Below, piece after piece: positions 8,266 through 9,477 of a DNA stretch of 64,000 bases. The DNA is from Escherichia coli. Lineage in GTDB: Bacteria > Pseudomonadota > Gammaproteobacteria > Enterobacterales > Enterobacteriaceae. The translations under genes and the position numbers were made by a program. The DNA is taken from the NCBI RefSeq assembly GCF_003334335.1, contig NZ_QOWQ01000027.1; one strand, 5' to 3'. The notes beneath the pieces were generated by a model. The model worked only from the letters and a program-made list of their open reading frames with translations. It did not search any database and was not told the DNA's origin. The first letter of the stretch is position 1, and every line of letters begins with the position of its first letter.

Positions 8266-9243
8266 TTAACTGTAGGCATGCAGCGTACGTTGGCAAAGTG
8301 CCGAACGTACGCAGTCCTCTTTACCGAACCGGACGATCCCAACCATTTCATCTTCTTCGAAACGTTCCAGCGCGTCACTTAATCCGGAGCACACGCCGCG
8401 AGGCAAATCGCATTGCGTGATATCACCGTTGACGATAACCGTCACGTTCTCCCCGAGGCGGGTTAAAAACATTTTCATTTGCGCGGCAGTCACATTCTGC
8501 GCCTCGTCAAGAATGACGACTGCATTTTCAAAGGTACGTCCACGCATATAGGCGAACGGCGCAATTTCCACCTTCCCTATTTCCGGTCGCAGGCAGTACT
8601 GCATAAAGGAAGCCCCTAAGCGCCGGACCAGCACGTCGTAGACCGGGCGAAAATAGGGAGCAAACTTTTCTGCGATATCTCCAGGTAAGAAGCCAAGATC
8701 CTCATCGGCTTGCAGAACTGGACGGGTGACGATAATCCTGTCGACATCCTTATGTATCAGGGCCTCTGCCGCTTTTGCTGCGCTGATCCAGGTTTTTCCG
8801 CACCCGGCTTCGCCCGTGGCGAATATCAGCTGCTTACTCTCAATAGCCTTCAGATAGTGCAATTGCGCTTCATTTCGCGCGAGGATGGGCGAGGTATCGC
8901 GACTGTCGCGGGCCATACCAATGGCTTCTACGCCGCTCATCTGCACAAGCGAGGTGACCGATTCTTCTTCACGCTGCTTATGGCTGCGCGAATCCCGTCT
9001 CAGCACACGTTTTGCCTCGCGACGAGCTTTGATCACTGCTTTTTGTCTTCCCATGGAGAGCACCTTGAGTTGTTTGTATTCATCACACGCGCCGTTGGCA
9101 GCGCGATTATGCGCACGAACATCAGAGGGTTGGCTTCCTTGTAAGCCATAGTTTGCTTTTGGATAAAATGCCGAAAAACGGCTACGCGTACCGTTTACGG
9201 CGTCGGTAACACATGAAAAGAAAGGATGAGGTTGAAAATGCAA
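8266..9243 (-). CDS. phoH: PhoH ATP-binding protein (P-loop GEAGCGKT); continuous frame from TTG at 9243, with the canonical N-terminus (MVTSCTGHVLDNQ...) in a different frame upstream
   Basis: ORF track; Walker A motif; upstream ATG at 9329 opens a 44-codon frame ending at 9195-9197; 9329 down to 8266 is 1064 nt (3n+2). Confidence 0.8.
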   Translation of the reverse strand: MHFQPHPFFSCVTDAVNGTRSRFSAFYPKANYGLQGSQPSDVRAHNRAANGACDEYKQLKVLSMGRQKAVIKARREAKRVLRRDSRSHKQREEESVTSLVQMSGVEAIGMARDSRDTSPILARNEAQLHYLKAIESKQLIFATGEAGCGKTWISAAKAAEALIHKDVDRIIVTRPVLQADEDLGFLPGDIAEKFAPYFRPVYDVLVRRLGASFMQYCLRPEIGKVEIAPFAYMRGRTFENAVVILDEAQNVTAAQMKMFLTRLGENVTVIVNGDITQCDLPRGVCSGLSDALERFEEDEMVGIVRFGKEDCVRSALCQRTLHAYS

Positions 9244-9477
9244 AGTGACGAGATGACTACCGAGGAGAAAACTCCGCGAGTGGTGGCGCGTTGATTATCT
9301 AAAACATGTCCAGTACAGGACGTTACCATCCGCGATCTCCATAGTGACTGACTATCACTGCCGGGAACTTCCGCTGCTACTTAATAAGTACAACAGATCT
9401 CGCATTTATTGCAACAATATATTTACTTATATTTAACTATAAAACACCATTTCAGTGACATTAGTTTCTACTGGAAA

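Follow-up and report, generated by a model that had tools for sequence, protein, structure and literature searches.

The phoH locus and its reading frames

The window, by which we mean the whole 64,000-nucleotide stretch of Escherichia coli DNA that was analyzed, carries pgaC and pgaD on the plus strand (6476-8216) and phoH and efeB on the minus strand. The conserved phoH coding sequence, which starts MGRQKAVIKARREAKR and comprises 262 amino acids and a stop, is intact at 8266..9054 (-). Upstream of it, the ORF listing for the window gives a truncated open reading frame (ORF) of 44 amino acids, MVTSCTGHVLDNQRATTRGVFSSVVISSLCIFNLILSFHVLPTP, at 9195..9329 (-), whose ATG at 9329 is preceded by GGAGATCGCGG in the window sequence. 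This short ORF consists of 23 K-12-like codons followed by 21 out-of-frame codons and a TAA at 9195-9197. An earlier note on this DNA had described the same 44 codons, stop and peptide, and had stated that the frame of the protein body opens only at a TTG at 9243; both statements agree with the listing, in which the P-loop body lies inside a 325-amino-acid ORF with a TTG start (8266..9243, -).

Measured from ATG 9329 through the stop that ends at 8266, the sequence is 1064 nt long (3n+2), one nucleotide short of a continuous gene, as the note had counted. The two ATGs, at 9329 and 9054, are 275 nt apart, likewise 3n+2, and the stop follows after 44 codons. The note had also taken K-12 to have a continuous 354-codon frame, and rightly so: in the translation of K-12, the same ATG opens a frame of 354 codons, and it does so in O157:H7 and p4A as well. 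In the window, the frame of the upstream ATG does not run on into the PhoH body, and the 354-amino-acid proteoform of the K-12 type is therefore not encoded. Nor does it have the arrangement of a translationally coupled upstream ORF, since its upstream ORF stops 140 nt before ATG 9054.

A Pho box, the binding site of PhoB, can be read intact in the window sequence at 9478..9495 (-). Its sequence, TGTCATCACTCTGTCATC, is identical to the PhoB ChIP-seq motif upstream of phoH (PMC10294691). A PhoB site in this position would place the phoH gene of the window in the Pho regulon. Two phoH promoters, P1 and P2, were reportedly described by Kim et al. in 1993, P2 being constitutive. A promoter scan returned a single consensus match, at 9416-9443, which is not above chance expectation.

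A single-nucleotide deletion in the phoH 5' region

In an alignment with six strains, the window lacks exactly one nucleotide relative to K-12 (column 219), reading CTCCTCGG where K-12 has CTCCTCCGG. The deletion site, at 9261..9263 (-), has a lone C at 9262 instead of the CC of K-12 and falls in codon 24 of the K-12 frame. LR-29-1 shares the CTCCT-CGG of the window, and O157:H7 and p4A share CTCCTCCGG with K-12. The 1-bp deletion that the earlier note had proposed is therefore borne out by the alignment, but not in the place suggested for it. The note had pointed to the T/A runs in the overlap of the two frames (9195-9245), and the missing C lies upstream of that overlap, in a CC dinucleotide within CTCCTCC that contains no homopolymer and no T/A run.

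The other origin considered in the note was a sequencing error in a homopolymer, in which case the true sequence would be K-12-like and one C would have been dropped in sequencing or assembly. Single-base indels are the commonest assembly error, and the site is a short repeat, TCCTCC, yet the run comprises just two Cs and the allele recurs. An 80-nt query centered on the deletion found exact matches in five of 5426 complete E. coli genomes (~0.1%): EC416 (pig), PEC1009 (wild bird), LR-29-1 (human, Ecuador), GDSC2BY4G (vegetable), and EEC_W5 (chicken). These carriers come from varied sources and were deposited under different accession series; approximately 2550 more genomes are one to a few positions away from the query. 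A longer query of 1251 nt spanning the gene has matches in 5419 of the 5426 genomes, and its K-12 match spans 1252 nt. When positions 1-25000 of the window were used as the query, the same five carriers were the five best matches (~100.0%), followed by K-12 derivatives (99.4%). Because the exact carriers and the closest relatives over 25 kb are the same five genomes, the allele is inherited, and we regard an error as very improbable. Judging from these genome comparisons, the single-C deletion is a genuine inherited marker of one rare E. coli lineage that has been sequenced independently several times.

Two genomes of this lineage, NZ_AP027515.1 and NZ_CM130020.1, span 25,777 nt in two pieces in their matches to window 1-25000, a length that, set against the 25,000-nt query, indicates an extra insertion of ~0.78 kb that is absent from the window. 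K-12 strains span ~26,200 nt for the same query.

A frameshift in the phoH 5' region is, in the genomes compared here, not exceptional. BA22372 and 13P477T carry another 1-nt deletion, located ~30 nt further downstream (column 249 versus 219), and an 80-nt query for the BA22372-type allele found exact matches in 1945 of the 5426 complete genomes (36%). The same region also holds two deeply divergent E. coli haplotypes in a segment of ~100 nt (window ~9210-9314, -; alignment columns 167-270). K-12 and BA22372 differ in 28 of 104 columns of this segment, compared with 4 of 166 and 3 of 212 in its flanks. Neither haplotype is clearly nearer to E. albertii, and the pair could be an old dimorphism or the result of a recombination import.

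The conserved PhoH protein is intact

RefSeq annotation by PGAP presents phoH as a 789-nt, 262-amino-acid coding sequence from the ATG homologous to 9054 in all six strains checked, namely LR-29-1 (a deletion carrier), K-12, O157:H7, BA22372, 13P477T, and p4A. Despite the deletion, LR-29-1 phoH carries no pseudogene flag, and the frameshifted stretch is left intergenic, with no features under the 80-nt match. The 354-amino-acid form is kept only in the curated record NC_000913.3, and PGAP-annotated K-12 records use the downstream start. The earlier note had been prepared to give up its reading if K-12 turned out to match the window at this place and to be annotated from a start further downstream. 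The identity does not hold, since K-12 differs by one C; the downstream start does hold in the PGAP records of K-12, with NC_000913.3 as the exception.

Family models agree with this annotation. The 262-amino-acid ORF of the window scores 511.6 bits against the NCBIfam PhoH equivalog NF007827 (cutoff 380), with residues 9-261 covering the full 253-position profile. On the K-12 long form, the same model aligns to residues 101-353 only, and Pfam PF02562 aligns to residues 149-353 (E = 4.7e-76); residues 1-100 of the long form have no Pfam match. The Walker A motif GEAGCGKT and the motif ILDEAQN are legible in the window translation, and by equivalog score as well as by domain and P-loop motifs the ORF encodes a PhoH family ATPase. 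The body differs from that of K-12 by one residue, a change of Gly to Ser in QMGGVEA, and MGRQK is invariant in 80 species.

The deletion, at codon 24, is upstream of everything in the PhoH family models, which start at residues 101 and 149, and the conserved protein is therefore not split, nor is the gene a frameshifted pseudogene by this measure. The earlier note had supposed that a deletion here splits phoH. As read from the sequence, phoH is not split: the conserved 262-residue PhoH and its own start are intact in the window, and an intact 262-amino-acid phoH is annotated both with and without the deletion.

ATG 9054 has a Shine-Dalgarno-like AAGG upstream. Among the K-12 genes for which ribosome profiling with retapamulin (Ribo-RET) revealed an in-frame internal start is phoH, and synonymous-site conservation is locally raised there (10.1101/520783). 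This internal start is presumed to be the equivalent of ATG 9054.

An opposing view is that the 354-amino-acid protein is the sole functional product and that the frameshift abolishes it, leaving phoH a pseudogene in this lineage. The curated K-12 record is in its favor, and a PhoH of ~39 kDa with the predicted N-terminus is said to have been purified by Kim et al. in 1993 (J Bacteriol 175:1316). If so, the long form is made in K-12 and has been lost in the lineage of the window. On the other side stand the position of the extension outside the PhoH family models, the undamaged core of the window, and the internal start reported in the Ribo-RET study. The comparison of species described below also bears on this question.

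A sequence record titled Chryseobacterium sp. 18061 (CACSKA010000011.1) has an enterobacterial PhoH, as does a protein labeled as coming from Bacillus amyloliquefaciens. Both are 92-95% identical to the E. coli protein, and the records are probably mislabeled or contaminated assemblies.

The upstream frame among Enterobacteriaceae

A protein search with the 354-amino-acid query returned many homologues of 353-356 amino acids in other genera that cover the whole query, with whole-codon gaps and low identity in the first 92 residues. We compared the phoH loci of 80 Enterobacteriaceae species as DNA, 79 of which have enough upstream DNA for the extension to be followed. Every one of the 79 retains the upstream ATG. 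Its distance to the ATG of the short form is 270, 273, 276, 279, or 282 nt, and thus in frame, in 55 species, and 272, 275, or 278 nt (3n+2) in the remaining 24, which include Salmonella, most Citrobacter, and E. albertii; it is never 3n+1. The upstream ORF of these 24 out-of-frame species takes two forms: in 19 of them it has 97-98 codons and ends at a TGA overlapping the PhoH start, at +20..+22, and in the other five it has 84 codons and ends 23 nt upstream of the PhoH start. All 24 show the arrangement of a translationally coupled upstream ORF, which terminates at or beside the downstream start. Any gap between the upstream ORF and the short ATG is at most 23 nt wide in the 79 species representatives, and the stop of the window, 140 nt early, is unmatched.

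The extension combines an open frame with an unconstrained peptide. Over the 120 nt that follow the upstream ATG, the fastest-evolving part of the extension, the 79 species together have no stop in the ATG frame; the two alternative frames contain 89 and 187. Variability at the three codon positions is flat in each third of the extension (0.20/0.23/0.21, 0.37/0.36/0.36, and 0.16/0.13/0.12), as opposed to 0.002/0.003/0.087 in codons 1-20 of the body. A frame that is kept open while its peptide is unconstrained is the signature of selection for being translated rather than for the product. Two simpler accounts of the extension were rejected. It is not mere non-conserved upstream junk, given the 353-356-amino-acid homologues over the whole query and the always-open frame, and it is not a conserved protein segment, given the flat codon-position variability and the 24 out-of-frame species.

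As a control, we located stops in the 3n+2 frame of the in-frame species. They occur in 45 of the 55, most commonly where the TAA of K-12 and the window sits. In the 3n+2 class itself, none of the 24 species has a stop before -26, including at the position of the window TAA. This pattern is suggestive rather than conclusive, because the frame has switched independently only a few times, perhaps three or four, and zero of 24 is accordingly not strong as statistics.

These observations also weigh on the view of phoH as a pseudogene. In its favor, 55 of 79 species have an uninterrupted long frame. Against it, the extension peptide lacks codon-position constraint, and 24 of 79 species, along with 36% of E. 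coli genomes, carry the extension in a different frame from the body yet keep a core that is 93-100% identical. Overall, we consider the loss of PhoH function through this frameshift improbable.

RNA structure in the leader

We examined covariation in a 63-sequence alignment of the leader from -165 to +35, using 500 shuffles and slid controls for comparison. The consensus structure has 96.2% of cells paired, compared with 92.0% in the shuffles, and 134 cells are changed on both sides, whereas the shuffles have 49.8 and the slid controls no more than 44. The observed covariation score was reached by none of the 500 shuffles. Two hairpins covary. The first, at 9167..9204 (-), is composed of helix 1 (9198-9204 with 9167-9173), in which all seven pairs have changes on both sides, and helix 2, in which two of three pairs do; the TAA of the upstream ORF in the window (9195-9197) adjoins the 5' arm of this hairpin on its 3' side. 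The second, AUCGCGCUG...GGCGCGUG at 9081..9111 (-), is composed of helices 5 and 6; at three of its pairs, a double change replaces CG by UA, in 14, 16, and 5 sequences. Helix 6 (9100-9105 with 9088-9093) has compensatory changes in three pairs.

Between these hairpins is an invariant stem-loop, UGGCUU-ACAAGG-AAGCCA, at 9131..9148 (-). All five of its scored pairs (GGCUU with AAGCC) are identical in the 63 sequences, and the corresponding block, -90..-76, is 99% conserved in 79 species; without covariation, the structure is neither supported nor contradicted. Its ACAAGGA loop resembles the CsrA SELEX consensus, and phoH is absent from those supplements of an E. coli CsrA CLIP-seq study that were examined. 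An ORF of 38 codons, MAYKEANPLMF... (9033-9149, -), has its ATG within the invariant hairpin and ends at a TGA overlapping the PhoH start; it shares its frame with the overlapping upstream ORF of Salmonella and Citrobacter.

Two further elements are predicted. RNAalifold, applied to 80 sequences, places a conserved hairpin, CGCGGA...UCCGG, at 9259..9279 (-), with four core pairs that are 96-100% paired and two outer pairs that are 92-99% paired and show some GC/AU and CG/UA exchanges. The C deleted in the window lies in the 3' arm of this predicted hairpin, so that one G-C pair would be lost. In addition, the AAGG of the short start is predicted to pair with CCAUG (helix 7, invariant). No Rfam family matches the phoH leader. 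Further upstream, at 9491-9664 (-), there are weak, sub-threshold Rfam hits to naRNA4 and Ms_AS-1, and the naRNA4 hits, between efeB and the Pho box, resemble REP-type repeats (GCCTGATGCG..., GGATAAGGCGTT...).

With a covarying hairpin downstream of the deletion, it is conceivable that the long form is still made by programmed -1 ribosomal frameshifting between 9262 and 9195, and every out-of-frame species is 3n+2, an offset that a -1 shift would correct. The 135-nt upstream ORF of the window has no X XXY YYZ heptamer in any phase, however, which makes recoding unlikely, and in-frame species have this hairpin too, so that it is not specific to the shifted class. We give this explanation next to no credence.

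Discussion

Taken together, our comparisons make it highly probable that a rare lineage, nearest to K-12-type strains, inherited a single-C deletion that breaks the 354-codon frame and leaves the conserved PhoH core and the Pho box untouched, the frameshifted stretch behaving across Enterobacteriaceae as a translated, structured leader. Ribosomes initiating at ATG 9329 would terminate at 9195-9197 after 44 residues, still 140 nt short of the PhoH start, and the 262-residue PhoH ATPase would still be made from ATG 9054. We infer the latter because this start is conserved and has AAGG upstream, because it serves where the upstream ORF lies in another frame, and because it agrees with the internal start of K-12. 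Three considerations count against this account. The curated K-12 reference annotates 354 amino acids, the product of Kim et al. in 1993 was reportedly ~39 kDa, and if only ribosomes that had started at the upstream ATG translated the core, PhoH could fall sharply as a result of the early stop.

In another explanation, the window allele would be a regulatory hypomorph. Full expression would require ribosomes to translate from the upstream ATG to the PhoH start, by way of translational coupling, the opening of leader structure, or protection from Rho, and the early stop would uncouple the two; the G-C pair lost from the 9259-9279 hairpin may add to the effect. Several observations are consistent with this idea: the close approach of the upstream ORF to the short ATG, with a gap of at most 23 nt, in all 79 species representatives; the stops in the 3n+2 frame of 45 of 55 in-frame species, mostly at the position of the window TAA, where none of the 24 species of the 3n+2 class has one; the rarity of the allele (5 of 5426 genomes); the predicted pairing of the AAGG of the short start with CCAUG; and the location of the deleted C within a conserved helix. 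The support is comparative, though, the small number of independent frame switches, about three or four, leaves the zero of 24 statistically weak, and the spread of the lineage over several hosts suggests that any cost is small. We therefore hold this explanation to be possible but rather unlikely. A measurable regulatory effect of the early stop is, by the same comparisons, something that we can propose only tentatively.

More generally, the leader may be translated either by in-frame fusion to PhoH, as in K-12, Enterobacter, Klebsiella, and Buttiauxella, or as an overlapping upstream ORF, as in Salmonella, Citrobacter, and a third of E. coli, and the two arrangements would be interchangeable. 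A speculative extension of this notion, to which we attach limited confidence, is that the phoH 5' region is a translated, structured leader of ~275 nt in which translation from the upstream AUG to the PhoH start is selected, and that the lineage of the window is a natural uncoupling mutant with altered expression.

For the annotation of the window, phoH is an intact 262-amino-acid gene (8266-9054), neither a pseudogene nor split. This finding is largely ordinary, as an intact phoH is already annotated in this way in RefSeq for carriers of the deletion. It does imply that the 354-amino-acid annotation of K-12 is not representative: at least 36% of complete E. coli genomes, and 24 of 79 related species, have an out-of-frame extension. 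The comparative behavior of the phoH leader may be the more interesting by-product, a hypothesis drawn from the alignments. If the comparative pattern reflects function, phoH would exemplify an upstream frame selected for translation rather than for its product, and if that is true, the rare allele of the window would be a ready-made natural mutant for testing the idea. To our knowledge, PhoH is a protein of unknown function, and any handle on its regulation is for that reason of some value.

Comparison with known arrangements

The closest reference is K-12 phoH (b1020, NP_415539.1), which occupies the same locus between efeB and pgaD, is 99.6% identical over 1251 nt, and shares the Pho box, the upstream ATG, and the core with the window. 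The window differs from it in the C missing at codon 24, which breaks the 354-codon frame, and in two substitutions in the aligned 5' part. LR-29-1 is 100% identical to the window over the same 1251 nt. The RefSeq PhoH proteins of 262 amino acids, WP_000533533.1 in LR-29-1 and WP_000533522.1 in K-12 and O157:H7, correspond to the window ORF at 8266-9054.

In the BA22372-type allele and in Salmonella, Citrobacter, and E. albertii, the upstream ATG is out of frame by the same amount as in the window (275 nt, 3n+2), and PhoH is encoded from the downstream ATG. Their upstream ORF, of 97-98 codons, overlaps the PhoH start with its TGA at +20..+22, whereas that of the window stops 140 nt earlier because its background is of the K-12 type, with a TAA at a position where those lineages read CAA or another sense codon.

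Two general classes offer further comparisons. K-12-type phoH, with its annotated start and the internal in-frame start detected by Ribo-RET, resembles the two-proteoform class of Meydan et al. The extension, kept open in the absence of peptide constraint, resembles a translated leader, a likeness drawn from the comparative data alone. Upstream ORFs that act through being translated are a known class, including leader-ORF coupling and Rho polarity.
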